Shown: positions 45,476 through 61,093, counted from the stretch's first letter. The stretch: DNA of 64,000 nucleotides from Candidatus Multivoradales bacterium (GCA_965223325.1 CBDCWI010000002.1:2208001-2272000), one strand, 5' to 3'. A program made the numbers and translations. Notes: generated from the letters alone by a model not told the origin.

Positions 45476-46405
<930 letters not shown>

Positions 46406-46474
46406 GCGCAATAAGGATAGTCCGCAGAGCGAAACCGTACTGCTCGTCGCACCTGAAGCGCTAGCCTCGGACCG

Positions 46475-48403
46475 ATGGGGATCGACGCCACACCCTCCGA
46501 CCAACCGAGGCGCCCTACGACCGAGGCCGTCTTCGTTGGCCTCGCTCTCGTGGGCATGGTGCTTGGCCTCCTCGGAGATCACCTCGGCTTGCCTTGGCTG
46601 CGCTGGGCAGGCTACGGCACCTCCTACATTCTTGGGGGGTGGTTCGGGCTGCGCGCCGGCCTCTCTTCGCTCTTCTCGTTGCACGTCGACATCGACCTGT
46701 TGATGATTCTCGCTGCGCTCGGGGCGCTCATCATCGGTGCTCCCTTCGAAGGTGCGATGCTGCTCTTTCTGTTCTCGCTCTCGAACGTGCTCCAGGATCT
46801 TGCGATCGGAAAGTCGCGCTCTGCGATCCAGGCGCTCTTGAAGCTGCGGCCGGAGACGGCGCGAGTCCAAGTCGGCGGTACCTGGCAGGACACCCCGATC
46901 GCCGGCATCGAGAAGGGGGCGGTGTTTCTGGTCACCCCGGGCGACCGTCTACCCCTCGACGGTGACATCAGGCGCGGAACCAGCAAGGTAGATCAGGCGT
47001 CCCTCACCGGGGAGTCGGCCCCGGTTGCAAAGGCCGTCGGGGATCCGGTGTTCGCCGGCACCATCAACCTCGACGGCGCTCTCGAGGTCGAGGTGACGAA
47101 ACGAGCCGACGAGTCGGCACTGGCGCGCATGATCGACCTGGTTGAAGAGGCCCAGGGCGAGAAGGCCGCGACCCAACGCCTGATCGACCGCTTCGAACAA
47201 CCGTATGCTCTGGGGGTCATCGCCATGACGGCCCTCGCAATCACCGTTCCTGTTCTGTTTTGGGGAGAGGCTTTCAACGTCGCGTTCTATCGCGCCATGA
47301 CCCTGATGGTCGCGGCCAGCCCCTGCGCCCTGGTGATTTCAACTCCCGCAGCGGTTTTGAGTGCGATCGCGGCGGCAGCGGCGAGTGGCGTGCTCTGGAA
47401 GGGCGGCGTGCACGTCGAAGAGGCGGCCACAATCCAAGCGATCGCCTTCGACAAGACGGGAACGCTGACCGCTGGCCGCTCACAGCTGCAAGGCCTGGAA
47501 GCTCTGGCGGGCGCTTCCGAGGACGAGGTTCTCGGGTTGGCGGCGGCGGTTCAAGCGCGCAGCGAGCATCACCTCGCGCACGCCACCCTGGAGGCGGCCA
47601 GCGAGCGCGGTCTCGAAGTCGCCACCGCCACCGCATTCCACGCCGAGGTCGGCCGCGGAGTGCGCGCCCGGGTCGACGGCGCGACGGTTCACGTGGGCAA
47701 CCCGCGCTACTTTGCTGATCTCGCGACAGAAGGACTCGAAAGAGCCCAGCGACGGGTCGATGAGCTTCAACAGTCAGGCAAGACAGCCATCATGGTGGCG
47801 CGTGAGGACGACGCTACGGCCAAGGCGCCTGTCCTGGTCATCGGGGTCATGGCCTTCGCCGACACCTTGCGTCCCGAAGCGCCGGCGGTGATCTCTCGCC
47901 TACGGGAGATCGGAATCCAACACATCGTAATGTTGACCGGCGACAACGCGGGCGTCGGAGAAGCGATCGGCAACCAGGCCGGGGTCGACGAGGTCAGAGC
48001 CGAACTGATGCCGCAAGACAAGGTCACCCTGGTTCGCGATCTCGAACAGCGCTACGGCGCCGTCGCCATGGTGGGCGACGGGGTCAACGACGCACCGGCC
48101 CTGGCGACTGCGACCCTTGGGATCGCCATGGGCGGTGCCGGCACCGACGTCGCGCTCGAGACCGCCGACGTGGTCCTCATGTCTGACGACCTCCGCAAGA
48201 TCCCCTATGCCCTCAGCCTGGGACGCCGAGCTCGCCGGACGTTGATCGCTAACCTCTTGATTTCACTGGGGATGATCGTGGTCATGGTGACCTCGATCGT
48301 GACCGTCGGGCTGGCGTTGCCGCTGGCGGTCGTTGGCCATGAGGGCAGCACCGTCCTGGTGTCGCTGAACGGTCTGAGGCTCCTGGCCGCCCGTGACCGG
48401 TAG
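46475..48403 (+). CDS. Heavy-metal P-type ATPase, P1B-4 subtype (Co/Zn/Fe)
   Basis: TGES, SPC in the metal-binding helix, DKTGT, GDGVNDAPAL and HEGST; no N-terminal metal-binding domain. Confidence 0.9.
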   Translation: MGIDATPSDQPRRPTTEAVFVGLALVGMVLGLLGDHLGLPWLRWAGYGTSYILGGWFGLRAGLSSLFSLHVDIDLLMILAALGALIIGAPFEGAMLLFLFSLSNVLQDLAIGKSRSAIQALLKLRPETARVQVGGTWQDTPIAGIEKGAVFLVTPGDRLPLDGDIRRGTSKVDQASLTGESAPVAKAVGDPVFAGTINLDGALEVEVTKRADESALARMIDLVEEAQGEKAATQRLIDRFEQPYALGVIAMTALAITVPVLFWGEAFNVAFYRAMTLMVAASPCALVISTPAAVLSAIAAAAASGVLWKGGVHVEEAATIQAIAFDKTGTLTAGRSQLQGLEALAGASEDEVLGLAAAVQARSEHHLAHATLEAASERGLEVATATAFHAEVGRGVRARVDGATVHVGNPRYFADLATEGLERAQRRVDELQQSGKTAIMVAREDDATAKAPVLVIGVMAFADTLRPEAPAVISRLREIGIQHIVMLTGDNAGVGEAIGNQAGVDEVRAELMPQDKVTLVRDLEQRYGAVAMVGDGVNDAPALATATLGIAMGGAGTDVALETADVVLMSDDLRKIPYALSLGRRARRTLIANLLISLGMIVVMVTSIVTVGLALPLAVVGHEGSTVLVSLNGLRLLAARDR

Positions 48404-48518
48404 GAGCCCGTGGTGCAACACAGCATATCCACATGTCTATTCGCGACCGCAACCGGGCGTGCGCTAGAGTCAGGGGTCCTCGCAGAGCCCTTTTTATGGA
48501 ATTGATTCCTGAGGTCCG

Positions 48519-49304
48519 TTGATGCAACTCGCCCTGGTGAGCGCCAAGGGAGGCGTCGGAAAAACAACGACCGCCGTGAACCTGGCCGCCGCTCTCGCAG
48601 CCAAGGGTCGCCGATCTCTCGTCATCGATCTCGACCCACAGGGGTCGGCCTCGCTTCACCTGGGTGTCAAGCGCTCCGACTTCGCACCTTCGATCGCTGA
48701 TGTGCTGCTTGCTCGCCGCGAGATTCGCGATGTCATCCGTTCGACTGGCAACGAGATGCTCGACATCGCCACTTCCTCGGTCGACCTGCTCGACGCCGCC
48801 GAAGACGGCAAGAACTGGCGCCAACCCGACCGTCGCCTGTCGGTGGCCATCGAGGGTATTCGGTCGCTCTACGACTACATCATGATCGACTGCCCGTCGG
48901 GGTTCAACGCCCTGAGCCGCAACGCCATCGTCGCCGCGAGCCACTTCTTGATTCCGACCCCGCCGCAGTACCTGTGTTGGGAGGGCGTGCGAAACGTCAT
49001 CCAGCGCTGTCACCGCGTGGCGCACCGCTCCGGCCACCGCAACGAGCTGCTCGGGGTGCTCTTGTCGATGGTCGACGGCCGCGCTGGCTACCTGCGTGAC
49101 AACGCCGCCAACCTACGCCAGATTTTCGGCCAGGACCTGCTCGACAGCGAGGTGCGTACCAACGTCAAGCTCACCCAGGCAGCCGAGCTCGGGCGCCCTG
49201 TTCTAGCCACCGCTCCGTGGTCGACCGGCTCGCTCGCCTTCCGGGCGCTGGCCGAGGAAGTCGTTCTCCGCCAGGAAATGACCGAGGCCTACCCCGCCGC
49301 CTAG
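48519..49304 (+). CDS. ParA/Soj-family ATPase (orphan)
   Basis: KGGVGKTT deviant Walker A, IDLDPQG and IDCP motifs; no adjacent parB. Confidence 0.88.
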   Translation: MMQLALVSAKGGVGKTTTAVNLAAALAAKGRRSLVIDLDPQGSASLHLGVKRSDFAPSIADVLLARREIRDVIRSTGNEMLDIATSSVDLLDAAEDGKNWRQPDRRLSVAIEGIRSLYDYIMIDCPSGFNALSRNAIVAASHFLIPTPPQYLCWEGVRNVIQRCHRVAHRSGHRNELLGVLLSMVDGRAGYLRDNAANLRQIFGQDLLDSEVRTNVKLTQAAELGRPVLATAPWSTGSLAFRALAEEVVLRQEMTEAYPAA

Positions 49305-49346
49305 CGGAGCCAGAGAGTGCCTGCCACGACTCGAGTCGAGTTCGGA

Positions 49347-49368
49347 GCCTCGAGAGGCCTTTTTGTTT
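49347..49368 (+). terminator. Possible intrinsic terminator after parA
   Basis: Short hairpin GCCT-CGAG-AGGC followed by CTTTTTGTTT. Confidence 0.35.
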
Positions 49369-49430
49369 CGAATGAAGAAGGGTTGGCAGACGTACACCTG
49401 AGCCTATGGACGAGGCGCCGGAAACAGCGG

Positions 49431-49456
49431 TGAAACGAGGGCCTCATGCTATCGTC
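49431..49456 (+). promoter_or_regulatory. ECF-sigma-type promoter of the pspA operon
   Basis: TGAAAC-N16-CGTC, matching the Bacillus SigM/SigW-type consensus, about 145 bp upstream of pspA. Confidence 0.55.
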
Positions 49457-49600
49457 AGTTTCTATTATTTCTGCACCCTTCCACCCGTTTCGGCCTGCAG
49501 GTTCACCTCCATGCGACGCCGTTGTCGCCCTGCCGCATTCCACAACCTGGTCGAAGAAGAGCCGGCTGCGAGCCTGGCTGAACTCGAGGAGTAGTCGCTG

Positions 49601-50365
49601 ATGTTTCGTCGCTTGGGCAATCTAGTGAGGGGTTTCCTCGGTCTGTTCATTTCCGGTATCGAAAAGGCCAACCCGCGAGCGCTGATCGAGGCCGAGAAAG
49701 AGAATCTCCGTAAACAAATCGCCCGCTTCAACGACAGTCTGGCCCAGCACGCCGGCTTCGTCGAAAGCCTGATGCGCCAGATCAAGGCGCAGGAGAAAGC
49801 CGAGGCCGACCTCGCCGCCAAGACGGCCGCGCACTTGAAGCTCGGTCACCAGAAGGTCGCGGGTCAGTACGCCCTACGACTCAAGGACATCAAGGCGCAG
49901 CTCGAGGAGAACCGCAAACAGCTCGAGATGGCCGAACAGACCTACGAGAAGCTGATCAAGTCGCGCGACGTTTCGGTGCGCGACGCACAAGAGAAGATCG
50001 AGTCGCTCCGTCGCATGATCTCCGAGACCGAGATGCTCGAGGCGCAGGCCGAACTGCAGGAAATGGCGACCGGCATGATCACCTCGATCGGCGGTTCGGG
50101 CGACACCCTCAAGCGCGTCGAGGAATACCTGCACGAACGGCGCGACAAGGCTGCCGGGCGCGCCCGCGTCGCCTCCGATTCGGTCGACACCTCTGAGATC
50201 GACCTCATGGAGGCCGAGCAGGAGGCCCTGGGCGACCAGGCACTCGCCGAGTTCGCCGCCGCCTACGGCCTCGACGTGCCGGCACCCGAGGCCGCTGCAC
50301 CAGCGGAAGAGACATCGGCCGCCCCGGTGCGCGACATGGGCCCGACAGAAACAGAATCCAACTAA
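49601..50365 (+). CDS. PspA/IM30 (ESCRT-III superfamily) protein
   Basis: Amphipathic N-terminus MFRRLGNLVRGFLGLFI, IEKANPRALIE (the 'EDP' position), long coiled coil, RVEE..E....A.GRA helix and acidic/Pro tail; GAGGAG RBS. Confidence 0.85.
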   Translation: MFRRLGNLVRGFLGLFISGIEKANPRALIEAEKENLRKQIARFNDSLAQHAGFVESLMRQIKAQEKAEADLAAKTAAHLKLGHQKVAGQYALRLKDIKAQLEENRKQLEMAEQTYEKLIKSRDVSVRDAQEKIESLRRMISETEMLEAQAELQEMATGMITSIGGSGDTLKRVEEYLHERRDKAAGRARVASDSVDTSEIDLMEAEQEALGDQALAEFAAAYGLDVPAPEAAAPAEETSAAPVRDMGPTETESN

Positions 50366-50444
50366 GGATCGGCATTCCGGCCGACCATTCGGCTCGCTAC
50401 GAGTCAGCCTTAGATAGAACGCCAGAAAAACAGAGGACCCAGAC

Positions 50445-52166
50445 ATGTCGGACAACGTAGGACCTACCGTACTGGGGAAGATCGTCATCTTCCTCTTCGT
50501 TCTCGCGCTCCTCGCGGGCGCCGGCTACTTCTTCCGCGAGCAGATCTTCCCCTCAGGCCAGGAAACCGGCGACGTCGACCTCGACGAGTTCCGCGACCAG
50601 GCGGGGACCGTCGAAGCGCCCGACACGGCCGGCATCACGACGGTCAACGAGTACAGCTACGTGCCGTCTGAGAAGCTGCCGCCGGTCTCAGGCGTTTCCA
50701 ACTACAAGTGGGACGCCAACGAGAAGGTCGTCGAGTTTCCGATCAACGTGTGGATCGGCTGGCTCCCGATTGTCGCGGCCAATCACGGTTTCGCCGCCAA
50801 CGAAGACTCGATCTTCTACCGCGACTATGGCTTCAAGGTGAACCTTCGCCTGATCGACGACCCCGTCGTAGCACGCGACGCCTTCGCCGCCGGTGAGAGT
50901 CATGTGCTTTGGGGCACCCTCGACATGATGGTGCTGTTCGCGCCCGAGCTCATGAAGGACTCGCGCACCGCACCGCGCATCTTCCAGCAGATCGATTGGT
51001 CCAACGGCGGCGACGGCATCATCGTGCGCGGCGGCATCGACTCGGTCAAGGACCTCAGGGGCAAGACCGTGGTCTACGCCCAGAACAGCCCATCGCAGTA
51101 CTTCTTGAACAACCTGCTGCTCAACGCCGGCATCCAGCCGAGCGATGTCAAGCACCGCTACACCGGCGACGCCTTCCAGGCCGCGGCCGCCTTCGTTTCA
51201 GACAAGAGCATCGACGCCTGTGTGACCTGGGCTCCCGACATCTACAACATCCCCGATCGTGTCAAGGGAACGAAGATCCTCACGACAACCGTCGAGGCCA
51301 ACAAGCTCATCGCCGACGTCTGGGCGGCGCGTGCCGACTTCGCCAAGGACCACCCGGAGATCATTCAGGGTCTGGTCGACGGCATCTTCAAGGGCATGGA
51401 CCAACTCAAGTCGGACACCTTCAAGTCACAGGCCTTCGCCTGGATGGCCGACGGCTACGGCTTCGCGGTCGACGAGGTCGCTGCGATGGAGGCCGACGCC
51501 CACTCGACCAACTTCGCCGAGAACAAGAACTTCTTCCTCAACCAGAACAACCCCGCCAACTTCGAGCGTACCTGGAAGAACATCACCTTCGTCTACCGCG
51601 AGCTCGGTCTGCTTGGCACGCCCGTGCGTTTCGACGAGGTCATGGATTTCTCGGTGATCCAGAAGACCGACGCTTCGGGGATCTTCAAGAACCAGCGAGA
51701 CGAGTACCGCACCACCTTCGCGCCCACCTCGTACTCGCGGATCAACGCCGAAACCCCGATCCTCACCCAGACGATCCGGATCAACTTCTATCCCAACTCG
51801 GCGAACCTCTACGAACCCAGGCGCGACGAGCTCGGCAACCTGATTCAGGACTCACTCTACGATCCGAACGTCAACAGCACGATCGAGAAGGTCGGGCGGC
51901 TCGCCGGCCAGTATGAGCGCGCAGTGATCGCCGTGGTTGGGCACACCGATGCGTCAATGAAGGGGCGCGGAACGCCTGAAGAGGCTGTTCAGCGCCTATC
52001 GCTCGACCGCGCTCAGGCAGTGCGCGACGCGTTGATCAAGGAGTACAGCTTCGAGCCCGGCAAGTTCGTCGTTGAAGGCATGGGCTGGGACCAGCCCGTC
52101 TCTGGGGACAACCACGCCCTCAATCGCCGAGTTGAGATCTCGGTCTACCCACCCGAAGGTGGCTAG
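50445..52166 (+). CDS. Membrane-anchored NMT1/SsuA-like substrate-binding protein fused to a C-terminal OmpA-like domain
   Basis: N-terminal TM helix; WIGWLP, IDWSNGGDGI, SVKDLRGKTV and DACVTWAP; OmpA motifs VVGHTD, LSLDRAQAV and NRRVEI. Confidence 0.88.
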   Translation: MSDNVGPTVLGKIVIFLFVLALLAGAGYFFREQIFPSGQETGDVDLDEFRDQAGTVEAPDTAGITTVNEYSYVPSEKLPPVSGVSNYKWDANEKVVEFPINVWIGWLPIVAANHGFAANEDSIFYRDYGFKVNLRLIDDPVVARDAFAAGESHVLWGTLDMMVLFAPELMKDSRTAPRIFQQIDWSNGGDGIIVRGGIDSVKDLRGKTVVYAQNSPSQYFLNNLLLNAGIQPSDVKHRYTGDAFQAAAAFVSDKSIDACVTWAPDIYNIPDRVKGTKILTTTVEANKLIADVWAARADFAKDHPEIIQGLVDGIFKGMDQLKSDTFKSQAFAWMADGYGFAVDEVAAMEADAHSTNFAENKNFFLNQNNPANFERTWKNITFVYRELGLLGTPVRFDEVMDFSVIQKTDASGIFKNQRDEYRTTFAPTSYSRINAETPILTQTIRINFYPNSANLYEPRRDELGNLIQDSLYDPNVNSTIEKVGRLAGQYERAVIAVVGHTDASMKGRGTPEEAVQRLSLDRAQAVRDALIKEYSFEPGKFVVEGMGWDQPVSGDNHALNRRVEISVYPPEGG

Positions 52167-52195
52167 GCCATAGCCGACACGCCAGGAACCAAGAG

Positions 52196-53182
52196 TTGAC
52201 CACAGAGCAAGACCCACTCGCGTCGGAGGCTAAAGCTGCACGCGACGGAATCGGGGCGCACCTCGGCGACCCCGATGTGGTCGAAGCCGAAGCAGCTGAA
52301 CTCGCCGCCGAGGCCCCAGAAACATCTGGCGACGACGCCAACGACGGAGAAGAAACTGCCGGCACATCGGAAGGTCACGGCTTCCTGGTCGTTCGCGAGC
52401 ACATCCCGATGTGGATGTATTGGGTCCTCGGGATCATTCCGATCCTCCTCCTGTTTCTCGGCTGGTGGCTGCTGACTGGCAGCGGACCGGCCGAAGAGCG
52501 CATCATCTCTCCCACCATCCTGCCCAGCCCGCTAGAGGTCGCGCAGTCGTTCAAGCAGCTGTGGTTCGAGCGTGCGCTGACCCGCAATACCTTGATCTCC
52601 TTGCGGCGCGTCGCGCTCGGCTTCGCCGTCGGTACGGCGATCGCCTTTCCGCTCGGTCTCTTCATGGGTTCGTTCACCAAGATCAGGGCGCTCTTCAACC
52701 CGCTTGCCACCCTCGGTGCCTATCTGCCGATCCCAGCGCTCGTTCCGCTCACTCTTTCTCTCCTGGGAACAGGAGAGCGGCAGAAGGTCGGTTTTCTGGC
52801 GCTCGCCTTCCTGATCTACTTGTTGCCACTGATCGTCGCGGCGGTCGACAAGGTCGACGACGTGTTCGTCAAAACGGCACTCACCCTCGGCGCTAGCAAG
52901 TGGCAAGTAGTGAGCAGGGTGTTGTTCGGCGTTTCGTGGGCCGACATCTACCAGTCACTGCGCCTGGGCTTCGGTATCGGCTGGAGCTACATTCTGCTGG
53001 CCGAGATGGTCGACATTGGCCAGGGTCTGGGCGGCATCATCATGACCTCGCAACGCCGTGGACCCCGTGAGCACATCTACCTGGTGTTGCTGGTGATCAT
53101 CGCCATCGCCTTCGTCACCGATCGCATCTGGGCCGCTATCGGTGAGTACCTGTTCCCCTATCGCCGGCGGAGAAAAGCGTGA
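52196..53182 (+). CDS. ABC transporter permease (NitT/TauT/SsuC family)
   Basis: ILPSPLEV, SLRRVALGF, LPIPALVPL, EAA-like TALTLGASKWQ and WSYILLAEM. Confidence 0.9.
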   Translation: MTTEQDPLASEAKAARDGIGAHLGDPDVVEAEAAELAAEAPETSGDDANDGEETAGTSEGHGFLVVREHIPMWMYWVLGIIPILLLFLGWWLLTGSGPAEERIISPTILPSPLEVAQSFKQLWFERALTRNTLISLRRVALGFAVGTAIAFPLGLFMGSFTKIRALFNPLATLGAYLPIPALVPLTLSLLGTGERQKVGFLALAFLIYLLPLIVAAVDKVDDVFVKTALTLGASKWQVVSRVLFGVSWADIYQSLRLGFGIGWSYILLAEMVDIGQGLGGIIMTSQRRGPREHIYLVLLVIIAIAFVTDRIWAAIGEYLFPYRRRRKA

Positions 53183-54057
53183 GCCTCACCAGCAACGAAG
53201 GTAGCGCCCCGACCAGCGCACAGTCTACCGAGGTTTCCGAACCGCCGGTCGTCGAGTTCAGGGGTGTCGAGAAGACCTTCAACCCCGGGACCAGAAAGGC
53301 CTTCACCGCCATCAAGAACGTCGACTTCACAGTCGAAGATCGGCCCGGTGAGGGTGAGTTCATCGCCCTCGTGGGCCCCTCGGGGTGCGGCAAGTCGACC
53401 ATTCTCAATCTGATTCAGGGCTTCGACGACGTCTACCCGCCAACCAAGGGCGAGGTGCTGGTGCGCGGCAAGAAGGTCTTAGGGCCCGGCCGCGACCGCG
53501 GCATGATCTTTCAGCGCTACAGCTCCTTCCCCCATCTCACCGTGCTGCAGAACGTTACCTTTGGTCTCGAGATCGCACCCGAGAGCGACCTTTCGAAGAC
53601 GGCCATGCGCAACATGGCCCGCGAGTGGATTCGAAAGGTCGGCCTCGAAGGGCACGAGAGCAAGTATCCGCACCAACTCTCGGGCGGGCAGCAGCAGCGA
53701 GTTGCCATCGCGCGTAGCCTGGTAGTCAAGCCACGCATCATCTTGATGGACGAACCCTTCTCGGCACTCGATGAACCAACTCGCTACGACATGCAACAAC
53801 TCGTCACCCACCTCTGGCACGAGATCGAGGCGACGGTCTTCCTCGTCACCCACTCCTTGTCTGAGGCGGTCTACCTGGGCGATAGAGTGTGGATCATGTC
53901 GCGCCACCCCGGCACCATCGCCTATCGCTTCCGCGACATTATTCCCCCTCGCATCGACCGCGACCCCGTCGAGGTTCAAACCTCCGACGACTTCAAGTCG
54001 GCGGTGCGAGAGGTCGCCTCTGTCTTCCGCGAGATCGAAGCCGGGCGCACTCCCTAA
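53179..54057 (+). CDS. ABC transporter ATP-binding protein (NitT/TauT family)
   Basis: GPSGCGKS, LSGGQQQR, ILMDEPFSALD and VTHSLSEAVYLGDR; GTGA overlap with the permease. Confidence 0.93.
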   Translation: MSLTSNEGSAPTSAQSTEVSEPPVVEFRGVEKTFNPGTRKAFTAIKNVDFTVEDRPGEGEFIALVGPSGCGKSTILNLIQGFDDVYPPTKGEVLVRGKKVLGPGRDRGMIFQRYSSFPHLTVLQNVTFGLEIAPESDLSKTAMRNMAREWIRKVGLEGHESKYPHQLSGGQQQRVAIARSLVVKPRIILMDEPFSALDEPTRYDMQQLVTHLWHEIEATVFLVTHSLSEAVYLGDRVWIMSRHPGTIAYRFRDIIPPRIDRDPVEVQTSDDFKSAVREVASVFREIEAGRTP

Positions 54058-54070
54058 GGTCCAAAGCCAG

Positions 54071-54961
54071 ATGTCTGCTCCACCCATCGGTTTCTTTGGC
54101 TACGTCAAAGAAGCATTCTTCTGGCGCACCCCGACACCAGGGCTCGGTCATCTGCCGCTCAACCTCGGCGCCCTGGCGGTCTTTGGAGTGCTCGGCATCG
54201 CCAATCCGGGGTTCTGGCTGCTCGGTGGCGCCCTCGAACTCGCCTACCTGACCGGCATGGCGTCCAGTAGGCGCTTCCAGCGCGTCGTCCAGGGGCGCCG
54301 CTCCCTGGCACGCCAACGCCAGGAGGAGACCAAGCTCGGCGCCGCGATCACCCGCCTCACACTCGAGAGCCAGCGCCGCTACCACTCGCTCCTCGCCCAG
54401 TGCCGCGACATCGCCGGCATCTCGGCAACCCTCGACGACGGTGCGGGCATGACTTCGCTGCGCAAGCTACGCACTGGCGGCCTGAACCAGATGCTGTGGA
54501 TTTATCTACGGCTTCTGACCTCGCGCGAGGTCCTCGTGCAAACCCTCGAGCACACCGACCGCGAGTCGGTCGAGCGTGAGATCCAGGGCCTCACCGAACG
54601 CCTCGACGCGACCGATCCAGAAACCACGCTCGCTCGTTCGCTTACCGCATCGCTAGACATACAGCAGAAGCGGTTGGCCAACCTCGACCGGTCGACCGAA
54701 AGTCTCCACGTCCTCGAAGCCGAGCTCGTCCGCATCGAGTCGCAGGTCGCTTTGATTCGCGAAGAAATGGCAGTCTCCGGCAAGGCCGAAGCGCTTTCAG
54801 GTCGCGTCGACAGTGTCGCTGAGGCACTGGACGAGACCAACCGCTGGATGGAACAGAACGCCGACATCTTCTCGGGCCTGGAAGGCCTCGAAGAACCGCG
54901 TCTGGAGGACCTGCCGTCGACGACGCCACCGGTTCCACGCTACGAGGGCGAACGTTCATGA
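54071..54961 (+). CDS. Hypothetical protein with an N-terminal membrane hairpin and long coiled coil
   Basis: ATG 13 bp after the ABC ATPase stop; hydrophobic LNLGALAVFGVLGIANPGFWLLGGALELAYL followed by heptad-rich helices. Confidence 0.75.
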   Translation: MSAPPIGFFGYVKEAFFWRTPTPGLGHLPLNLGALAVFGVLGIANPGFWLLGGALELAYLTGMASSRRFQRVVQGRRSLARQRQEETKLGAAITRLTLESQRRYHSLLAQCRDIAGISATLDDGAGMTSLRKLRTGGLNQMLWIYLRLLTSREVLVQTLEHTDRESVEREIQGLTERLDATDPETTLARSLTASLDIQQKRLANLDRSTESLHVLEAELVRIESQVALIREEMAVSGKAEALSGRVDSVAEALDETNRWMEQNADIFSGLEGLEEPRLEDLPSTTPPVPRYEGERS

Positions 54962-56787
54962 TGGAGAAGGGCGAGAAGTCGTCTCTGGAGCTTCCTGGGT
55001 GGGCCGAAGAGATGCGACGCCTCTTCCGCTCTGGGACCTGCTCACAGTTCGTTCTCTATGGCTCGGTGCACGATCTGGTGGCGCTCGAGACCAGAGGCGG
55101 GAAAGCCGGCCAACGACAGTACGTCGCTCTGCGGACCTTCCTCACCGAGCGCATGTTTCAGCCTTTCGACGTGGTCATTCACTACGATCGCGGTCGCGGC
55201 ATTCGAGTCAAGAAGGGAGCTGGCCACTTCCATCGGTTCCTGGAGGCGTTCGACGCTTTTCAAGGCACCAATTGGGCGAAACTCCCCAGCGAAGCGGTCG
55301 GCGAATCACTCAACCTGGCCAATACCTTGCCGCGCGACCCGCCGCGGGCACTCGAGCTCCTCAACCGTTTCCTGCGTGGCAGCCAGTCCCTGACCGACGC
55401 CGACGAAGACGGCGCTCGACACCCGGCGCCGTTGTCGGTCGCCCTGGTGATCGACCATGCCGAGTACATCGCACCGCGGGCCGATGCGCTCCAGATGTCC
55501 TCGGAACACAGCCAGGCCCTCATTCAGCTGCTCGACTGGGCCAGTGACCCGGACCTCACCAAAGCCGTGGTGTCGACGGTTCTGATCACTGACACGCTCG
55601 GCGACCTGACGCAGGACCTGGTCGAGAACCCCTACAACTCCAAGCTCGAGGTCGAGCTTCCGAACACCGAAGAGATCGAGCGCTACGTCGAAGACCTGGT
55701 TGCCGACGAACCCGAATTCGAGCGCCTCTCTGAACTCGCCCCGCCAGCGCTGGCGGCCAAGCTCCTCGGCCTCACCAGGGTCAACGTGCGCAGTTTGATC
55801 CTGCGTGCCCTGCGCAACGACGAGCCGCTCGACTCGAAGTACCTCTCCGAACTGCGCAAGGAGCTGATCGAAAAGCAGGCCTCGGGACTGATCGAGTTCA
55901 TCGAGTCGAAGCGCACCTTGGACGACGTCGCCGGTCACGTCGAAGCCAAGGCCTGGCTTCGGCAAGACGCCGAGCTCTTGCGTCGCGGTCGCATTCGGGC
56001 CCTCCCGATGGGCTACCTGCTTGCCGGCCGCATCGGCACAGGAAAGACCTACCTGGTCACCTGCCTGGCAGGCGAAGTCGGTGTCCCGGTCGTCGAGCTC
56101 AAGAACTTTCGCGACAAGTGGGTAGGCGCTACCGAAGGCAACCTGGAGAAGATCTTCGCGATCCTGGAAGCCCTCGGTCAAGTGATCGTCTTCGTCGACG
56201 AGGCCGACCAGGCGACTGGGAAACGCAGCGGTGGCGGCGGGGGCGACGGCGGGCTCTCCGGGCGCATCTACGGCATGCTCGCCAAGAAGATGAGTGACAC
56301 CGCCAACCGCGGCAAGATCGTCTGGATCTTCGCCACCAGCCGGCCAGATCTTCTCGAGGTCGACCTCAAGCGGCAGGGCCGCCTCGACGTCCACATCCCG
56401 CTCTTTCCACCGCAGGATCCCGAGAGTCGCCAGGAGCTGTTTGCCGCGATGGCACGAAAGGTCGGAGTGGACTTCGGCGGTGAGCTACCCGAACTGCCCG
56501 ACAACCCTCAGATCGGCGGCAACGAAATGGAAGGCATCCTGGTGCGGACGCTGCGGCTCTGGGAGACTCGAACAGACGACGAGAAGCGCACCCTTTCCGA
56601 GATCGCCAGCGAAGTGATCGCCGAGTTCCGGCCGTCGGCACACGTCGAGCGGTTGAAGATGATGGATCTCCTAGCGGTCAAGGAGTGCACCGACGACCGC
56701 TTCCTGCCGCCGCGCTTCCGCGAAATGGATCTCGGCGAGGTCAATCGCCGCATCCAGGAGCTCAAGTTCTCGATCGGAGAGGACTAG
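54958..56787 (+). CDS. Classical-clade AAA+ ATPase with a degenerate N-terminal P-loop-like domain
   Basis: Walker A GRIGTGKT, pore loop DKWVGATE, Walker B VFVDEAD, SRH ATSRPDLLEVDLKRQGRLD; ATGA overlap with the previous gene. Confidence 0.88.
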   Translation: MMEKGEKSSLELPGWAEEMRRLFRSGTCSQFVLYGSVHDLVALETRGGKAGQRQYVALRTFLTERMFQPFDVVIHYDRGRGIRVKKGAGHFHRFLEAFDAFQGTNWAKLPSEAVGESLNLANTLPRDPPRALELLNRFLRGSQSLTDADEDGARHPAPLSVALVIDHAEYIAPRADALQMSSEHSQALIQLLDWASDPDLTKAVVSTVLITDTLGDLTQDLVENPYNSKLEVELPNTEEIERYVEDLVADEPEFERLSELAPPALAAKLLGLTRVNVRSLILRALRNDEPLDSKYLSELRKELIEKQASGLIEFIESKRTLDDVAGHVEAKAWLRQDAELLRRGRIRALPMGYLLAGRIGTGKTYLVTCLAGEVGVPVVELKNFRDKWVGATEGNLEKIFAILEALGQVIVFVDEADQATGKRSGGGGGDGGLSGRIYGMLAKKMSDTANRGKIVWIFATSRPDLLEVDLKRQGRLDVHIPLFPPQDPESRQELFAAMARKVGVDFGGELPELPDNPQIGGNEMEGILVRTLRLWETRTDDEKRTLSEIASEVIAEFRPSAHVERLKMMDLLAVKECTDDRFLPPRFREMDLGEVNRRIQELKFSIGED

Positions 56788-56900
56788 CAGCCTCCCAGAC
56801 CCCGGGACCGATCCGGTAGGCTTCCCTGTCGAATTTGTCCACGTCTTAGAGGAATGGCACGCGAGACTGCCTGCCAGCCTCATGTGTTTCAGGAGAAGTC

Positions 56901-58643
56901 ATGCTCACCAAGACGACCCGCTTCGGGTCCTTTGGCCTTCTTGCCGTCGCCGCTGTCGCCGCATCCACCTGGCTCGTAGCCGGTTGCACGCCAGATGAAA
57001 GTGAAAGCCCCCTGGCCACGACCGACACAGAGTCGGCCGGCACCCTCGACACCACCCTGCCGGCTGCAATCGGCGACGCCGAGGCTCTTGTCACCGCCGA
57101 GCTTCTACGAACACATGTCGCCGCCCTCGCCGACGACGCAATGGCGGGCCGTGCGCCGGGGACCGAAGGCGACCGGATGGCGCAGCACTATCTGATTCGG
57201 GAGATGCAGGGCATCGGCCTCGAACCGGCAGGGCCAGGAGGAGAATGGCTGCAACCGTTCGACATCGTCGGCATCACGGCAGAGGTTCCGAAGACCTGGA
57301 GTTTCGCCACCAAGAATGGCGAAATGACCATGGTCAGGAACGACGAGTTCGTCGTCTTCAGCGGCTCGCAGAGCGACCGCGCCGCGATCGAGAACGCCGA
57401 GCTGGTGTTCGTGGGCTACGGGATCGAAGCGCCAGAGTACGGCTGGGACGATTTCGGCGATGCCGACCTCTCCGGCAAGGTGTTGGTGATGATGAACAAC
57501 GACCCCGACTGGGATGACGATCTCTTCGCCGGTGACCGCCGCCTGTTCTACGGCCGCTGGGTCTACAAGTACGAAAGCGCCGCCCGCCAGGGCGCCGTGG
57601 GCGCCATCGTCATCCACACCACGCCTTCAGCCGGCTACCCGTGGCAGGTCGTCACCAGCTCCTGGACCGGCGAACAGGTCGAACTGCCAGCCGGCCAGGA
57701 GCCGCGCCTCGCCATCGGCGCCTGGACGACCGAAGACGCGACCCGTCGCCTCTTCAAGCAGGCCGGTTTCGACCTCGACACCCTGCGCGAAGAGGCGCGA
57801 AGCGCTGACTTTTCCCCAGTCCCCCTGGGAATTACCACCTCTCTGGCGATCGAGAATTCGATCAACCGCACCGAAACCGCCAACGTCCTTGGTTTGCTGC
57901 CCGCTAGCGACGCCGATCTGAGTGACCAATACGTCGTCTACAGCGCGCACTACGACCATCTCGGAAACTCCGGCGAAGGCTCCGATTCGATCTACAACGG
58001 TGCCCTCGACAACGCTGCCGGGACCTCCACCGTTCTCGCCATCGCCCGGGCCATGGCGGCTCTCCCCGAGCGCCCGCGCCGCTCCACCATCTTCGCCTTC
58101 GTCGGCGCCGAAGAGTCGGGCCTCCTGGGCTCGAGGTTCTATGCCGAGAACCCCACCGTGCCGCCCGGCAGAATGGTCGCTAATCTCAACTTCGACGGCG
58201 GCAACATCTGGGGCCGCACCGAAGACGTCACCTTCATCGGTTACGGAAAGTCCTCTCTAGATGCCGTCGTCGAAGCCTTTGCCGCTCAACAGGGCCGCAC
58301 CGTGCAAGGCGACCAGTTCCCCGACCGCGGCTTCTTCTACCGCTCCGACCAGTTCAATTTCGCCAAGATCGGCGTCCCCGCCATCTACCTCGACACCGGC
58401 ACCCGCTTCCGCGATCGCGACGAGAACTGGGGCCGAGAGCAAATCGAGGCCTGGGAGGCCCAGCACTACCACCAGCCCAGCGACGAACTCGTCGACTCCT
58501 GGAACTGGGAGGGCATGGTCGAAGACACCGTCCTCGGCCTACGCGCCGGAGTCTGGATCGCCAACCAGGAGAGCCAACCAACCTGGAACCCAGGCGACGA
58601 GTTCGAAGCCGCCAGACAAGAAGCCCTGGCCGCCATTCAGTAG
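56901..58643 (+). CDS. M28-family peptidase with PA domain, probable lipoprotein
   Basis: Lipobox LVAGC; SAHYDHLG, YNGALDNAAG, AEESGLLGS, YRSDQ and YHQPSDE motifs. Confidence 0.9.
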   Translation: MLTKTTRFGSFGLLAVAAVAASTWLVAGCTPDESESPLATTDTESAGTLDTTLPAAIGDAEALVTAELLRTHVAALADDAMAGRAPGTEGDRMAQHYLIREMQGIGLEPAGPGGEWLQPFDIVGITAEVPKTWSFATKNGEMTMVRNDEFVVFSGSQSDRAAIENAELVFVGYGIEAPEYGWDDFGDADLSGKVLVMMNNDPDWDDDLFAGDRRLFYGRWVYKYESAARQGAVGAIVIHTTPSAGYPWQVVTSSWTGEQVELPAGQEPRLAIGAWTTEDATRRLFKQAGFDLDTLREEARSADFSPVPLGITTSLAIENSINRTETANVLGLLPASDADLSDQYVVYSAHYDHLGNSGEGSDSIYNGALDNAAGTSTVLAIARAMAALPERPRRSTIFAFVGAEESGLLGSRFYAENPTVPPGRMVANLNFDGGNIWGRTEDVTFIGYGKSSLDAVVEAFAAQQGRTVQGDQFPDRGFFYRSDQFNFAKIGVPAIYLDTGTRFRDRDENWGREQIEAWEAQHYHQPSDELVDSWNWEGMVEDTVLGLRAGVWIANQESQPTWNPGDEFEAARQEALAAIQ

Positions 58644-58926
58644 GCGCACCGCAAGGTCAGCCCACCGGCTACTCGAGAGGCGAAGAGTAGTAGCGCGAGA
58701 AGTGTGAACGCACGAGGCCGCACTCGAGCAAGAAAGTCTCGGAGATCGAGCGCGTCCTCGAGGAGTTTTCAGAACCCGCGGAGCTTCATCGCGGTGCCGC
58801 TCCAAGCTGGCCACGAGCGGTACAACCACTCCTCGAGCTCTCCGGAACGAATCATCTCCGTGGGGTCTTTGACCGCCAGCGCAGCCAAGACGCTCCTCGC
58901 ACTCTTTGAAGCGGTTTCGGGTAGAG

Positions 58927-59658
58927 CTACAGCTTGCAGTCTAGAGGGGAGCTGCCCACCTCGCACCAGAGCATCCAGGTCCGTCGCGCGCGGTTGAAGG
59001 AGTACCGACTGAGCCGTTCCAGCCACAGGTCGTGGCGTGAGGCGAGTCTCTTCATCACCTCCGCGTCATGACGTTGTATGCGCTGGAAGTCGTAGCGAGT
59101 GGACGCGAGCTGGCGCCCCTGAGACAAAACCTCGGTGACGGTCGCGGGGTGGGCAAAGAGCGCTCCCAACACATCGAGATAGCGGTTGGGATGCGGCACC
59201 TCGGCGATCATCACCCCCAGTGACTGGCGCGAAAGAAGCCTACAGAGGCCCCCCACCGTCCGGTCGAGCTCCTCTTCACTCATGTATTGGACGACGCCAT
59301 GCATCACAACGAGATCAATCGAACCTTCTCCCAGTTCCTCGACCGAAGCCACCGAACGCACCTTGAACAGACCGTTGGCGCATTCCTTCACGACTTCGGC
59401 AATCGACTCGGCGAAAACCGGAGACGGGTCGTAGAGCACCCGCTCGGAACAGGGCAAGAGGTCGAGGAAGCACCCATTTCCGCAGCCGAAGTCGAGCACC
59501 CGGCAGGAGTCCAGGCTCCCGAAGGTGGCCGAGAGGGTTCGCTTGAAGTTGCGTCTGGTCAGGCTCTGGATGCGACCCTGCACCATGATGCCGTGTGCGG
59601 TCGTCTCATCAGCCCAGAGCTTTCGCCAGTACGACAAGTCACTTAGCCCCTTTGCCAC
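58927..59658 (-). CDS. Class I SAM-dependent methyltransferase
   Basis: VLDFGCGNG and IDLVVMHGVVQY motifs; GGAGG RBS before GTG 59658, which overlaps the upstream gene end. Confidence 0.75.
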   Translation of the reverse strand: MAKGLSDLSYWRKLWADETTAHGIMVQGRIQSLTRRNFKRTLSATFGSLDSCRVLDFGCGNGCFLDLLPCSERVLYDPSPVFAESIAEVVKECANGLFKVRSVASVEELGEGSIDLVVMHGVVQYMSEEELDRTVGGLCRLLSRQSLGVMIAEVPHPNRYLDVLGALFAHPATVTEVLSQGRQLASTRYDFQRIQRHDAEVMKRLASRHDLWLERLSRYSFNRARRTWMLWCEVGSSPLDCKL

Positions 59659-61093
59659 GCATGAACCTCCCATGCGTTGGATTGGCTTCCAACCGCTCCA
59701 GAGCCGAAGGCCCCTCGAGAAGGTCGCCTCCCCAACCCTCGGGATGGACCTCGATCTGCGCATGCTCGAGGACACCGAGCTCGGCTGCCATGTCCGGCAT
59801 CACCCGGACCTCTGTCACAATCGCCTCGCGACCGCCCTGCCGGTACATGGGTGCAGCTACTGACATCGCCAGACTGAGCAGGAGCAAAATCACTCCGTAG
59901 GCTTTCAGAGCCACGCCCGGCAACTTCCAACGGCTTGAAGGCAGGGCGCTGCGCTCCAGGTAGAGCACGACGGGCAGGATCGCTGCATGAAGCGCAATGA
60001 AGCCGCGCCAGCTCGTCATTCCGGAGGCACCGACGCTGTTGTCGATGGCCGGACTGGCAGCGATCACCATCATCAGCGCAACGAACACGAGTCCGGAGTA
60101 CCCGAGCAGCCAGTGCGCAAGACCGCTGGATCTCTCACCGAGAAGCCGCTTCGTACTCGCGACGTTTGCCAGTACGACCACAAGCAGCGTGATCGCTGCA
60201 CAGAGCGGAAAGAGAACCGAGAACGCCGGCGCCAGGATGGCGTCCCACCACTCCCCCAGTACCGGCGTGAAGTCAAGCGTGGTCATCCGACTGGTGTAGG
60301 CCGCGGAAGGGAACCGCAGCCAGTAGAGAGCGACTTCCAGAACCGGTTCCACCTGAAGCAGGCCGCCACCAAGCATGCCCTCACTGAGCGGCCGAATTTG
60401 TGGATACTCAAGAGCCGCTTGCACCCAGTCCCAGAGCGATAGGGCTAGAAGCAACCCGCCTGCGATCACGCCGCCCCAGTGCACACGGATGAGACGGCGA
60501 AGCAGGAGCAGAGCCGACGCCACGACGAGAACCAGGAAGGAGGCGTGAAGGTGAAACGCCGCACCGATCGCCAGCACATGCCAAAGAGTCGCCCAGAACC
60601 TTCCTCGCTCGCGAAGAGCTGCCGCGGTCGCGAGGTGCACGGATGCAGGGAGGAACAGGAGGTTGGGGTTCCAGATGTGCGCGGAGTGAAAGAGGCGCCA
60701 GGGGTTGAGCCAGTAGAGAACGCACAAGGCCAACCGTCCCTTCGGGCTGAGCACGGGCTGCAGGGACCGGTCCAGCAGGAGGTACGCCAGGAGATGGAGC
60801 ACGACCGTGAAACCGCCAATGGCGCGATAGTCCTGCCACACAAACAGTGGCAGTCCCATCGCAAGCGACGTCAGAGAACCGGGTTGATAGCCGCCGGCGG
60901 CCGTCAGGGCCCCGAACGGAACGAGGAAGCCCTCCTTCGCCAGGAGCCAGCCATGAATCGTCAGCCTGAAGGCATCCCCTTCGAACTGAGCGCGCAGAAC
61001 CATGAGAAGGGAAACGCCCAAGCCAAAGCCAAGAAACAGCCGGCGCCAGACTCCGAAGGATTGAACGGCTTCATGTTCTTCAGGCCTGGTCAT
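59639..61093 (-). CDS. Polytopic membrane protein, probable GT-C (ArnT/PMT-like) glycosyltransferase
   Basis: About 11 TM segments, acidic FEGD in the first loop, YWLNPW..F....WNP and FHLHAS; ATGA overlap with the deacetylase gene. Confidence 0.6.
   Translation of the reverse strand: MTRPEEHEAVQSFGVWRRLFLGFGLGVSLLMVLRAQFEGDAFRLTIHGWLLAKEGFLVPFGALTAAGGYQPGSLTSLAMGLPLFVWQDYRAIGGFTVVLHLLAYLLLDRSLQPVLSPKGRLALCVLYWLNPWRLFHSAHIWNPNLLFLPASVHLATAAALRERGRFWATLWHVLAIGAAFHLHASFLVLVVASALLLLRRLIRVHWGGVIAGGLLLALSLWDWVQAALEYPQIRPLSEGMLGGGLLQVEPVLEVALYWLRFPSAAYTSRMTTLDFTPVLGEWWDAILAPAFSVLFPLCAAITLLVVVLANVASTKRLLGERSSGLAHWLLGYSGLVFVALMMVIAASPAIDNSVGASGMTSWRGFIALHAAILPVVLYLERSALPSSRWKLPGVALKAYGVILLLLSLAMSVAAPMYRQGGREAIVTEVRVMPDMAAELGVLEHAQIEVHPEGWGGDLLEGPSALERLEANPTHGRFMRGKGAK

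Follow-up and report, generated by a model that had tools for sequence, protein, structure and literature searches.

Six plus-strand genes lie between positions 49601 and 56787 of the window, that is, the whole stretch of 64,000 nucleotides that was analysed (Table 1). They are separated by 79, 29, -4, 13 and -4 bp, the negative values being overlaps of 4 bp between the permease and ABC ATPase genes and between the TMcc and AAA+ ATPase genes. An initial annotation of this DNA had described six co-oriented genes with these gaps, encoding a PspA/IM30 protein, a TM-SBP-OmpA protein, an ABC permease, an ABC ATPase, a 2-TM coiled-coil protein and an AAA+ ATPase; the ORF coordinates recover the arrangement in full, and the Pfam and sequence results agree with the identities. 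PspB, PspC, PspF and LiaRS partners had been declared missing. Indeed, none is encoded in the six-gene block, and no PspB, PspC, PspF, LiaI or LiaRS gene was found beside pspA within positions 45476-61318. The locus has neither the canonical Psp regulon (PspBCF) nor the LiaRS-LiaIH arrangement. One PspC-domain ORF is present in the genome, on its other contig.

Table 1. Features of the locus, in window coordinates
Feature	Position	Strand	Remarks
TGAAAC-N16-CGTC motif	49431-49456	+	TGAAAC 49431-49436, CGTC 49453-49456
PspA/IM30 family protein, 254 aa	49601-50365	+	Pfam PspA_IM30
TM-SBP-OmpA protein, 573 aa	50445-52166	+	Pfam NMT1 plus OmpA
ABC permease	52196-53182	+	Pfam BPD_transp_1
ABC ATPase	53179-54057	+	Pfam ABC_tran
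TMcc, 296 aa, unnamed family	54071-54961	+	No Pfam family assigned
Two-module AAA+ ATPase, 609 aa	54958-56787	+	Pfam AAA PF00004, residues 354-481

The initial annotation noted that comparative surveys of PspA/Snf7 neighbourhoods had mentioned similar gene contexts, and the literature check traced both the operon type and its reading to a published study. An operon type with PspA, a TM protein, a two-module AAA+ ATPase, ABC genes and a PBPB-OmpA protein, the same six components as in the present locus, is described in section 18 of Ravi, Anantharaman, Aravind, Gennaro and colleagues (mSystems 2024, PMC11237479), where it is read as an ATP-dependent membrane-remodelling system comparable to Snf7/Vps4. 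Our literature search found no functional study of this operon type. The present analysis adds to Ravi et al. 2024 synteny and co-occurrence counts, a PspA-TMcc core, a PspA tail motif, a common promoter element and a weak fold test; the description of the ATPase as a two-module, Cdc48-like protein whose first module is dead and which lacks an MIT domain is also new, as is the lack of conservation of the ECF-like motif.

Upstream region and conservation of the gene block

The TGAAAC-N16-CGTC motif is present in the sequence where the initial annotation placed it, and its 3' part overlaps a -10-like TGCTATCGT (49447-49455). Its reading as an ECF-like promoter is not supported, the motif not being conserved in related loci: TGAAAC was found in only 4 of 62 regions upstream of PspA genes, one of them from the window and 61 from related loci. 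The upstream regions of the orthologues have in common a sigma-70-like element, TTGAC-N14/15-TTGCTA. The composite TTGAC-N12-19-T[GT][CT]TA was detected in 34 of these 62 regions and in 36 of 7526 background pieces of 300 nt, and TG[CT]TA[TA]NNT in 15 of 62 against 38 of 7526. In the window's own upstream region the -10-like part was found alone, with no TTGAC at the right spacing.

Gene order was compared in 80 loci from different species, which are not independent because all were seeded on TMcc and most come from one phylum, being deposited as Acidobacteriota. The identical six-gene order is found in 58 of them; of the remaining 22, the majority are truncated by the end of a contig. The genes flanking the block in the window are rarely seen in the set: of the 80 loci, one has the M28 peptidase, two have ParA and none has the P-type ATPase. 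The same order in 58 loci, together with flanks that are not syntenic, indicates that the six-gene block is a real unit. The conserved co-occurrence looked for in this neighbourhood comparison was thus observed, and rearranged loci also keep their modules together despite a shuffled order (L075-L077, L081, L100, L101, L105). Divergent loci L075, L076 and L081 read TMcc-AAA-PspA-SBP/OmpA; in L077, permease, ABC ATPase, TMcc and AAA genes are followed, after about 4 kb, by PspA and SBP/OmpA. SBP/OmpA and PspA stay an adjacent pair in these four loci.

Co-occurrence was counted in a phylum sample of 401 genomes, of which 85 contain TMcc, 62 the D1 half of the ATPase and 133 PF04012. TMcc accompanies the ATPase in 55 of its 62 genomes, and the ATPase was found in 7 of the 316 genomes that lack TMcc; conversely, D1 was not matched in 30 of the 85 genomes with TMcc. 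Where both are present, they lie within 2 kb of each other in 38 of the 55 genomes and within 10 kb in 5 more; in the remaining 12 they are placed on separate contigs or are separated by more than 1 Mb. PspA is present in 79 of the 85 TMcc genomes; 38 of these have it within 2 kb of TMcc and 27 at a distance of 3.0-3.8 kb, and in 74 of the 79 it is the sole PspA match of the genome. An adjacency inherited within one lineage, devoid of common function, would suit a set of loci mostly deposited as Acidobacteriota, relatives keeping gene order by descent. We nevertheless consider it very improbable: conservation does not extend to the flanking genes, distant loci keep the gene set in shuffled order, two gene pairs overlap by 4 bp, and the presence of TMcc, ATPase and PspA is correlated across the 401 genomes.

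The tightest link in the operon is that of PspA with TMcc. PspA adjoins TMcc in 13 of the 20 loci fetched for distant TMcc paralogues, and 5 of these are a bare PspA-TMcc pair (L086, L087, L091, L096, L097, one whole family of genomes). Such pairs exist without ATPase or transporter, so that PspA and TMcc can form a pair that does not require the ATPase. No ATPase was found in the 3.6-10 kb downstream flank of L037, L052 and L055, which are of the six-gene type. Other loci carry PspA-TMcc-AAA triads without any ABC genes (L079, L089, L092, L098, L102, L103), and two have TMcc with the OmpA protein, the permease and the ABC ATPase, without PspA nearby (L090, L094); the gene sets of these two suggest that TMcc may serve the transporter as much as PspA. 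The initial annotation had the coiled-coil protein recruiting PspA. The tightness of the genomic linkage speaks for this proposal and fits a recruiter or an anchor role.

PspA, TMcc and the two-module ATPase

The PspA protein scores 38.9 bits against a PF04012 cut-off of 33.9, its residues 2-220 aligning to positions 3-216 of the 220-position profile, and it is the single PF04012 match in a profile search of the 6.69-Mb genome. A genome-wide search for Snf7 gave no match in the same genome. Solved PspA, Vipp1 or CHMP chains were matched neither by phmmer with the protein as query (E <= 1) nor by hmmsearch with a profile of 29 relatives (E <= 10), and the protein is probably a divergent PspA/IM30 member, an assignment made by Pfam alone. 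The chain starts with an amphipathic helix and ends with a [KR][DE]MGP motif; it also has a C-terminal helix and a Pro/Ala linker. The C-terminal helix (EAEQxALxxQALxEFAAAYGL) and the terminal motif are kept across 29 sequences, and the latter looks like a recruitment signal.

TMcc, which has 920 cluster representatives as relatives at E <= 0.001, has an amphipathic helix at its N-terminus. Residues 30-65 form a membrane hairpin with an invariant N45-P46-G47-F48 turn, and the cytoplasmic domain is all-helical, its first half being basic and its second acidic. Section 18 of Ravi et al. 2024 (PMC11237479) names the TM protein a Snf7 homologue, a relationship that was not reproduced here. Snf7 and PspA_IM30 were absent from the 25 most frequently matched of the 110 Pfam families found at E <= 1 with 44 TMcc family members, and a profile search of solved structures with TMcc returned no ESCRT-III chain at E <= 10. 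With the predicted structure (model pLDDT 85.6), Foldseek gave no match at E <= 0.001, and an all-against-all aligner matched generic helical bundles with a best Z of 9.9 and no ESCRT-III protein among the 50 matches listed. Comparison of the TMcc and PspA profiles by hhalign gave a probability of 0.9%. The basic-then-acidic charge split was the sole resemblance to ESCRT-III. Like mycobacterial PspM (Rv2743c), to which it is similar in size, TMcc has a two-TM build and is encoded beside pspA, and the nearest named protein-atlas clusters carry the Rv2743c Pfam family (scores 0.88 and 0.83, a lead only). The Rv2743c model does not, however, match TMcc: PF25587 gave 13 weak matches genome-wide at E <= 10, none of them at the TMcc gene.

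The AAA+ ATPase matches PF00004 with an E value of 8.5e-26 and carries two AAA modules. The first (D1, about residues 1-320) is degenerate, without GK[ST] and with IDH/YA replacing the Walker B DE; in the alignment neither the Lys of the P-loop nor the Glu of Walker B is present. The second (D2, about residues 340-520) has intact motifs (GTGKT, VDEAD, KWVG pore loop, SRPD...KRQGRLD) and is followed by a helical C-terminal extension. Across 36 sequences there is no variation at G357, G360-T364, W388, G390, D414-E415, R462, R472 or R475. With Walker A, Walker B, aromatic pore loop 1 and arginine fingers all present, the protein belongs to the classical clade of AAA+ ATPases, in agreement with the initial annotation, and its invariant KWVG pore loop and arginine fingers point to substrate threading.

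By contrast, the label 'Vps4-like' had to be abandoned. The whole ATPase model aligns to D1 and D2 of Cdc48/p97/Rix7 (E about 1e-20), D2 matches Cdc48 D2 (E 6e-34), and the D1 profile finds Cdc48 D1 (E 6e-8). NCBIfam scores are 71 bits for CDC48, 68 bits for FtsH and 39.9 bits for CdvC, the cut-off of the latter being 650. No Vps4 is among the best 60 solved chains matched, and no Pfam MIT family was detected in the ATPase, residues 1-320 being a degenerate AAA module, not a three-helix MIT. Because it has no MIT domain and shows a Cdc48-like two-module build with a dead D1 ahead of the active module, the ATPase is not a Vps4; the missing MIT domain, the two cassettes and Cdc48/p97/VAT as nearest solved relatives likewise rule out identity with CdvC.

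The structure prediction of the ATPase with PspA suggested in the initial annotation was run with the PspA tail (residues 185-254) and gave a score of 0.48, the best of three controls reaching 0.00, with a pLDDT of 46 or more for the partner and agreement between runs in 30% or more of contacts. Of 80 solved complexes 58 reached the mark used, as did 2 of 110 mismatched pairs; with scores of 0.60 or under, only 7 of the 80 complexes but both mismatches did so. By this calibration of the tool, a pass at 0.48 is wrong more often than right unless the pairing is already likely. The predicted fold thus weakly supports contact of the ATPase with the PspA tail.

The ATPase might instead act on TMcc or the transporter, as a Cdc48/FtsH-like extractor or regulator that would pull out or reset either the hairpin of TMcc or the permease, PspA only stabilising the membrane. 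This is unlikely, although the TMcc and ATPase genes overlap and lie within 2 kb of each other in most genomes with both, the nearest relatives of the ATPase are unfoldases of the Cdc48/VAT/FtsH type, TMcc accompanies the ABC module without PspA in two loci, and the N-terminal extension of the permease is variable and disordered. Against it stand the six loci with PspA-TMcc-AAA triads lacking ABC genes, the conserved terminal motif of PspA and, weakly, the fold with the PspA tail. A role as a holdase or negative regulator, keeping PspA unassembled until stress, has a precedent in PspF, itself an AAA+ protein, which binds PspA in Proteobacteria (review PMC7619361), and a dead D1 could form a binding platform. 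We regard this role as quite improbable for a classical-clade protein, not of the NtrC clade, that has no DNA-binding domain and whose pore loop and arginine fingers point to threading.

The ABC module and its tethered binding protein

The SBP protein has an N-terminal TM anchor, an SsuA/TauA/NMT1-type domain (about residues 100-400; TauA E 2e-8, SsuA E 2e-8) and an OmpA-like domain (residues 478-567), which scores 38 bits against the PF00691 cut-off of 27.2 and matches the Omp38 peptidoglycan-binding domain with an E value of 9e-10. GHTD, LSxxRA and NRRVE are read in the translation of its C-terminal domain, and we take these to be motifs of OmpA-like domains. The C-terminal part is therefore a predicted OmpA-like peptidoglycan-binding domain. 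In section 18 of Ravi et al. 2024, OmpA is likewise given as binding peptidoglycan, and the binding domain as taking the transported solute.

The permease and the ABC ATPase resemble TauC/SaoP and TauB/SaoA, and the motifs of the ABC ATPase are intact (Walker A GPSGCGKST, signature LSGGQQQR, Walker B ILMDEP). The start of the permease (TTG 52196) is uncertain because its first 60 or so residues are of low complexity, variable and not conserved among orthologues. As judged from sequence, the ABC genes encode a binding-protein-dependent importer of NitT/TauT-like type. The nearest NCBIfam models of the permease (SaoP, TauC, NtrB) all score far below cut-off, and no equivalog cut-off of a named importer family was reached (TIGR03427, for instance, 74 bits against 334); matches so far under the curated cut-offs indicate that the ABC system is not an orthologue of a known importer.

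An ordinary importer of sulfonate, taurine, nitrate or an osmolyte, merely co-transcribed and with no link to PspA, would explain the intact ABC motifs, the TauA/SsuA-like binding domain, the resemblances of permease and ATPase, and the PspA-TMcc(-AAA) sets found without ABC genes; the OmpA fusion would then only position the binding protein. A loose link between osmotic stress and ESCRT-type genes may also be general, since according to Makarova et al. 2024 some ESCRT loci of archaea include the gene of a ProX binding protein. We hold this explanation to be rather unlikely: the anchored OmpA binding protein travels with PspA through rearrangements, the scores for named families are far below cut-off, and 58 of the 80 loci have all six genes in the same succession.

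Comparison with known systems and a proposed mechanism

As in ESCRT-III/Vps4 systems (CdvB/CdvC), an ESCRT-III-superfamily polymer gene lies near a classical-clade AAA+ gene with an aromatic pore loop, and the very C-terminal end of PspA, beyond a flexible linker, bears a short conserved motif, in the place that MIM motifs occupy in ESCRT-III. The locus differs in its ATPase, which has no MIT domain, two AAA modules instead of one and a closer relationship to Cdc48/p97/VAT, and in encoding a transporter but no ESCRT-I or ESCRT-II parts. With the Psp/Lia systems (E. coli PspABCF, B. subtilis LiaIH, M. tuberculosis ClgR-PspA-PspM-PspN) it shares a PspA beside a small integral membrane partner, but PspB, PspC, PspF, LiaRS and ClgR are missing; conversely, the classical systems are not known to have a dedicated unfoldase or transporter, whereas the present locus encodes both an AAA+ ATPase and an ABC system. 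Tandem AAA modules are also found in the type II unfoldases Cdc48/p97/VAT and Rix7. Unlike these, the locus ATPase has lost the nucleotide-binding residues of D1, has no double-psi-barrel N domain, carries a helical C-terminal extension and has PspA and TMcc as genomic partners.

Taken together, these results partly support the initial interpretation. That the six genes form one functional unit for PspA-based envelope maintenance, made of three modules and with the ATPase acting on PspA, we hold with about even confidence. The sequences show the gene content, the motifs, the synteny and the co-occurrence; all physical contacts are inferred, as are the ligand, the stress signal and what the ATPase acts on. 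The host would be a Gram-negative bacterium, its nearest relatives being deposited mostly as Acidobacteriota. In the first module, PspA would be an ESCRT-III-superfamily membrane-binding polymer and TMcc its dedicated inner-membrane partner (anchor, sensor or nucleator), analogous in role to LiaI, PspB/C or mycobacterial PspM. In the second, the Cdc48-like ATPase, with its dead D1 and active pore-loop D2, would thread or remodel a partner, most likely PspA through its conserved C-terminal tail, leading to disassembly or recycling of the polymer; it would thus be a functional analogue of Vps4, not a homologue in domain build. The third would be a NitT/TauT-type ABC importer whose binding protein is anchored in the inner membrane through its TM helix and attached to peptidoglycan through the OmpA-like domain. 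Such a tether might sense membrane-to-wall separation, and the importer may couple solute uptake or periplasmic sensing to the same PspA response.

Gene order and conservation of the block

The initial annotation had described six co-oriented genes with gaps of 79, 29, -4, 13 and -4 bp between successive ORFs, and both the ORF coordinates and the Pfam assignments bear this out. The fifth gene encodes TMcc, a 296-aa helical protein with a membrane hairpin, whose start at 54071 is backed by homologues aligning from residue 1. For the permease the start codon is uncertain, since its first ~60 residues are of low complexity and differ in each orthologue. The block is flanked upstream by a ParA-like ATPase, a XerC/D-type recombinase and a P-type ATPase, and downstream by an M28 peptidase. 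It should be noted that the recombinase and P-type ATPase ORFs overlap by ~400 bp on opposite strands, and one of the two probably has a true start later than its longest ORF implies. Also downstream, a 559-aa ORF at 59639-61318 (-) matched no Pfam family at E <= 0.01.

Features of the six-gene block, its upstream flank and the shared upstream motif
Feature	Position	Strand	Assignment or remark
PspA	49601-50365	+	PspA_IM30 (Pfam), 38.9 bits against a cut-off of 33.9, nearly whole profile
SBP/OmpA (second protein)	50445-52166	+	NMT1-type binding domain and OmpA (Pfam)
Permease	52196-53182	+	BPD_transp_1 (Pfam)
ABC ATPase	53179-54057	+	ABC_tran (Pfam)
TMcc	54071-54961	+	no Pfam family
AAA+ ATPase	54958-56787	+	AAA (PF00004), residues 354-481
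Tyrosine recombinase (XerC/D-type), 464 aa	45476-46870	-	upstream flank
P-type ATPase, longest ORF	46475-48403	+	upstream flank
TTGAC-N14/15-(G)TTGCTA, example in locus L003	2839-2864		upstream of pspA
TTGAC-N14/15-(G)TTGCTA, example in locus L004	5360-5385		upstream of pspA

To determine whether the six genes co-occur, as the initial annotation had proposed to check, loci were collected from one genome per species, seeded on TMcc by the closer of two TMcc alignments. Among the resulting 80 TMcc-seeded loci, 58 carry all six genes in identical order and strand, and most of the remaining 22 are interrupted by contig ends. The ATPase is absent from the 3.6-10 kb downstream flank in three loci (L037, L052 and L055). 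In the most distant loci the set is kept and reordered as TMcc-AAA-PspA-SBP/OmpA (L075, L076 and L081), locus L077 has a split arrangement, and locus L079 has PspA-TMcc-AAA without the transporter. Most of the 80 loci are deposited as Acidobacteriota (Thermoanaerobaculia, Vicinamibacteria, Holophagae, Terriglobia), and a few as Gemmatimonadota, Krumholzibacteriota, Planctomycetota, Burkholderiales, UBP9 and some Proteobacteria. The genes flanking the block in the window are not syntenic, the M28 peptidase being found in 1, ParA in 2 and the P-type ATPase in none of the 80 loci. These results show that the six-gene block is a real conserved unit.

TMcc and the ATPase are separated by unrelated genes in five loci. 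These inserts are mixed (RNase D-like, Ser/Thr kinase with TPR, SpoIIE phosphatase sensor, others), so none of them is a seventh conserved partner. The inserts at L058 10913-13732 and L042 11083-13041 code for either a Ser/Thr kinase bearing TPR repeats or a phosphatase of the Cache-HAMP-SpoIIE type; in the species concerned, such proteins may act as lineage-specific regulators.

Regarding the promoter region, the TGAAAC-N16-CGTC motif of the initial annotation is present in the window sequence and is not conserved, TGAAAC occurring in 4 of 62 upstream regions of PspA. An ECF-sigma promoter of the form GAAC-N15-18-CGT was rejected as well, with 7/62 PspA upstream regions compared to 556/7526 background pieces (7.4%), that is, no enrichment. 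A different motif, TTGAC-N14/15-(G)TTGCTA, lies ~120 nt ahead of the PspA start codon in 34/62 upstream regions compared to 36/7526 background pieces, and it looks like a sigma-70-type -35 element with an extended -10 element. The window retains only the -10-like half, TGCTATCGT (49447-49455), which overlaps the CGTC of the first motif. A simple sigma-70 scan of 49250-57000 returned 0 promoter-like sites, and the 9 terminator-like sites in the same interval (5.9 expected) include none that is convincing.

PspA, the tethered transporter and the ATPase

PspA is the only PF04012 match in the 6.69-Mb genome (98% complete), in which a genome-wide profile search found no match to Snf7. This PspA is divergent, and sequence searches of solved structures with the protein or its profile found no PspA or Vipp1. 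Members of its subfamily share a conserved C-terminal helix and, beyond a linker rich in Pro and Ala, end in the motif [KR][DE]MGP. The Vps4-binding motifs of ESCRT-III proteins sit at the same C-terminal position. A small PspC-domain ORF (82 bits) lies on the other contig of the same genome, far from the only pspA (G000:C1:1615558-1615737, locus L082; G000 denotes the genome of the window).

The second protein of the block has an N-terminal TM helix, a binding domain nearest to TauA and SsuA (E 2e-8) and an OmpA-like domain that bears the usual peptidoglycan-binding motifs. The motifs of the ABC ATPase are intact, and no NCBIfam importer equivalog came near its cut-off for the transporter.

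The 609-aa AAA+ ATPase had been likened to Vps4. Its predicted structure (pLDDT 84.9) aligns over the full length to the first and second AAA modules (D1 and D2) of Cdc48, p97 and Rix7 with E of about 1e-20 and TM-scores of only 0.33-0.45, and a profile of its N-terminal half alone finds Cdc48 D1 (E 6e-8). In the alignment, D1 retains the AAA-typical PLP and GLSR stretches and has neither the P-loop lysine nor the Walker B glutamate. The catalytic and pore-loop residues of D2 are all invariant. D2 has Cdc48 D2 as its nearest match (E 6e-34), and the 60 best chains include no Vps4. Because of these matches, of the residue losses in D1 and of the invariant residues in D2, the protein reads as a two-module unfoldase with a predicted dead first ring. 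Unlike Vps4, it has two modules and no MIT domain. A second protein of the genome (G000:C2:2911606-2912733, locus L084) matches residues 206-582 of the ATPase with 31% identity and may be a paralogue extending into the degenerate D1.

TMcc and its partners

TMcc belongs to a large unnamed family, for which one database gave 232 matches and another 920 cluster representatives. In its model (pLDDT 85.6), a short amphipathic helix and a membrane hairpin, the turn of which is an invariant N-P-G-F, are followed by a helical cytoplasmic domain of which the first half is basic (+9) and the second acidic (-15). The TM protein of the PspA/AAA+/ABC operon was termed a Snf7 homologue by Ravi et al. 2024 (PMC11237479). 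When 44 TMcc members were searched, neither Snf7 nor PspA_IM30 was among the 25 most-hit of the 110 Pfam families at E <= 1. A TMcc profile search of solved structures returned no ESCRT-III chain, Foldseek with the TMcc model gave nothing at E <= 0.001, all-against-all structural alignment gave generic helical bundles (best Z 9.9) with no ESCRT-III among the 50 matches listed, and hhalign of the TMcc and PspA profiles gave a probability of 0.9%. Long helical proteins are a hard case for all the tools used in this comparison; with no specific match, we could not confirm the Snf7 assignment, and these searches do not disprove it. In a protein atlas the clusters nearest to TMcc contain the Rv2743c (PspM) family (scores 0.88 and 0.83), a likeness that we treat as a lead only; identity with Rv2743c/PspM was rejected, as the Pfam model fails to match the TMcc gene.

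To address which genes form the core of the system, co-occurrence was counted in a sample of 401 genomes of the phylum. Of these, 85 contain TMcc, 62 the N-terminal half of the ATPase and 133 a PF04012 match. TMcc is also present in 55 of the 62 ATPase genomes, and the ATPase occurs in 7 of the 316 genomes without TMcc. When both are present (55 genomes), they lie less than 2 kb apart in 38, less than 10 kb apart in 5 more, and apart in 12. PspA is present in 79 of the 85 TMcc genomes, within 2 kb of TMcc in 38 and at 3.0-3.8 kb, the distance of the six-gene form, in 27. For 74 of these 79 genomes it is the only PspA match. Another 54 genomes have PspA without TMcc, and those PspAs score much closer to the Pfam model.

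Twenty loci of distant TMcc paralogues were compared as well. Five have bare PspA-TMcc pairs, five PspA-TMcc-AAA triads, three the full six-gene set, four ABC genes without PspA, and three none of the PspA, AAA or ABC genes nearby. Two of the four loci with ABC genes and no PspA (L090 5144-10437 and L094 9225-14375) encode a 601-aa OmpA-domain protein, a permease, an ABC ATPase and then the TMcc paralogue, with no PspA or AAA+ nearby; therefore a link between TMcc and the transporter exists without PspA or the AAA+ ATPase. At L093 6747-10221 the TMcc paralogue adjoins a 713-aa DUF4388-DnaJ-TPR protein.

Taken together, the 401-genome counts and the 20 distant loci, all seeded on TMcc and including related genomes that are not independent, identify TMcc as the hub and PspA as the gene found beside it most constantly. 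The ATPase and the transporter often join this pair as add-ons.

A possible ATP-driven PspA cycle

Similar gene contexts, which the initial annotation had mentioned, are indeed described in print. According to Ravi et al. 2024 (PMC11237479), one operon comprises PspA, a TM protein, a two-AAA+ ATPase with an inactive first AAA+ domain, an ABC ATPase, a permease and PBPB-OmpA, and an ATP-dependent remodelling comparable to Snf7/Vps4 was proposed there from gene neighbourhoods. The idea put forward for this block is therefore already in print and not new. We found no bench study of the ATPase-PspA system in the literature outside subscription journals. The system is real and conserved, of a published type for which no functional characterisation was found.

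Our working reading has three parts. PspA and TMcc would form a membrane-bound core; the ATPase, whose gene overlaps that of TMcc by 4 bp, would thread PspA from its conserved tail and so recycle the polymer; and the binding protein tethered to the wall, together with its ABC partner, would tie the PspA cycle to a periplasmic solute or to the state of the envelope. We put this reading at about even odds. Counting against it, many genomes have PspA and TMcc without the ATPase, and TMcc also pairs with the transporter where PspA is missing. The ATPase could instead act on TMcc or the permease. Of the structure predictions suggested in the initial annotation, that of PspA with the ATPase was carried out on the PspA tail fragment (residues 185-254). 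Folded with the ATPase, this fragment scored 0.48, whereas the best of 3 controls scored 0.00. Among solved complexes 58 of 80 reach the mark for this score, and among mismatches 2 of 110; only 7 of the 80 solved complexes, and both mismatches, do so at 0.60 or under. The pLDDT of the partner is at least 46, and the runs agree in at least 30% of contacts. This predicted fold lends weak support, shifting the odds slightly and settling nothing.

A bolder version of the three-part reading, which we consider rather unlikely, is that of a bacterial ATP-driven ESCRT-III machine that would have evolved independently of Vps4. Here, a Cdc48-derived ATPase with a dead D1 would be held at the membrane by TMcc, recognise the [KR][DE]MGP tail and recycle PspA, and the binding protein stapled between inner membrane and wall, together with its ABC partner, would report or correct the envelope state that triggers assembly.

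The mechanism by which bacteria disassemble PspA/Vipp1 polymers is an open question, and a Vps4-like ATPase appears to be absent in bacteria according to a 2025 review (PMC7619361). Since both question and candidate are already stated in the literature, the value of the block is that of a well-defined test case, not of a discovery. The counts separate the core (PspA and TMcc) from the add-ons (the ATPase and the tethered transporter) and so show which proteins to purify first. As a candidate for an ATP-driven PspA cycle in bacteria, the operon is concrete and occurs in many species; an independent ESCRT-III machine, if true, would contradict the statement of reviews that bacteria are without a dedicated ESCRT-III disassemblase.
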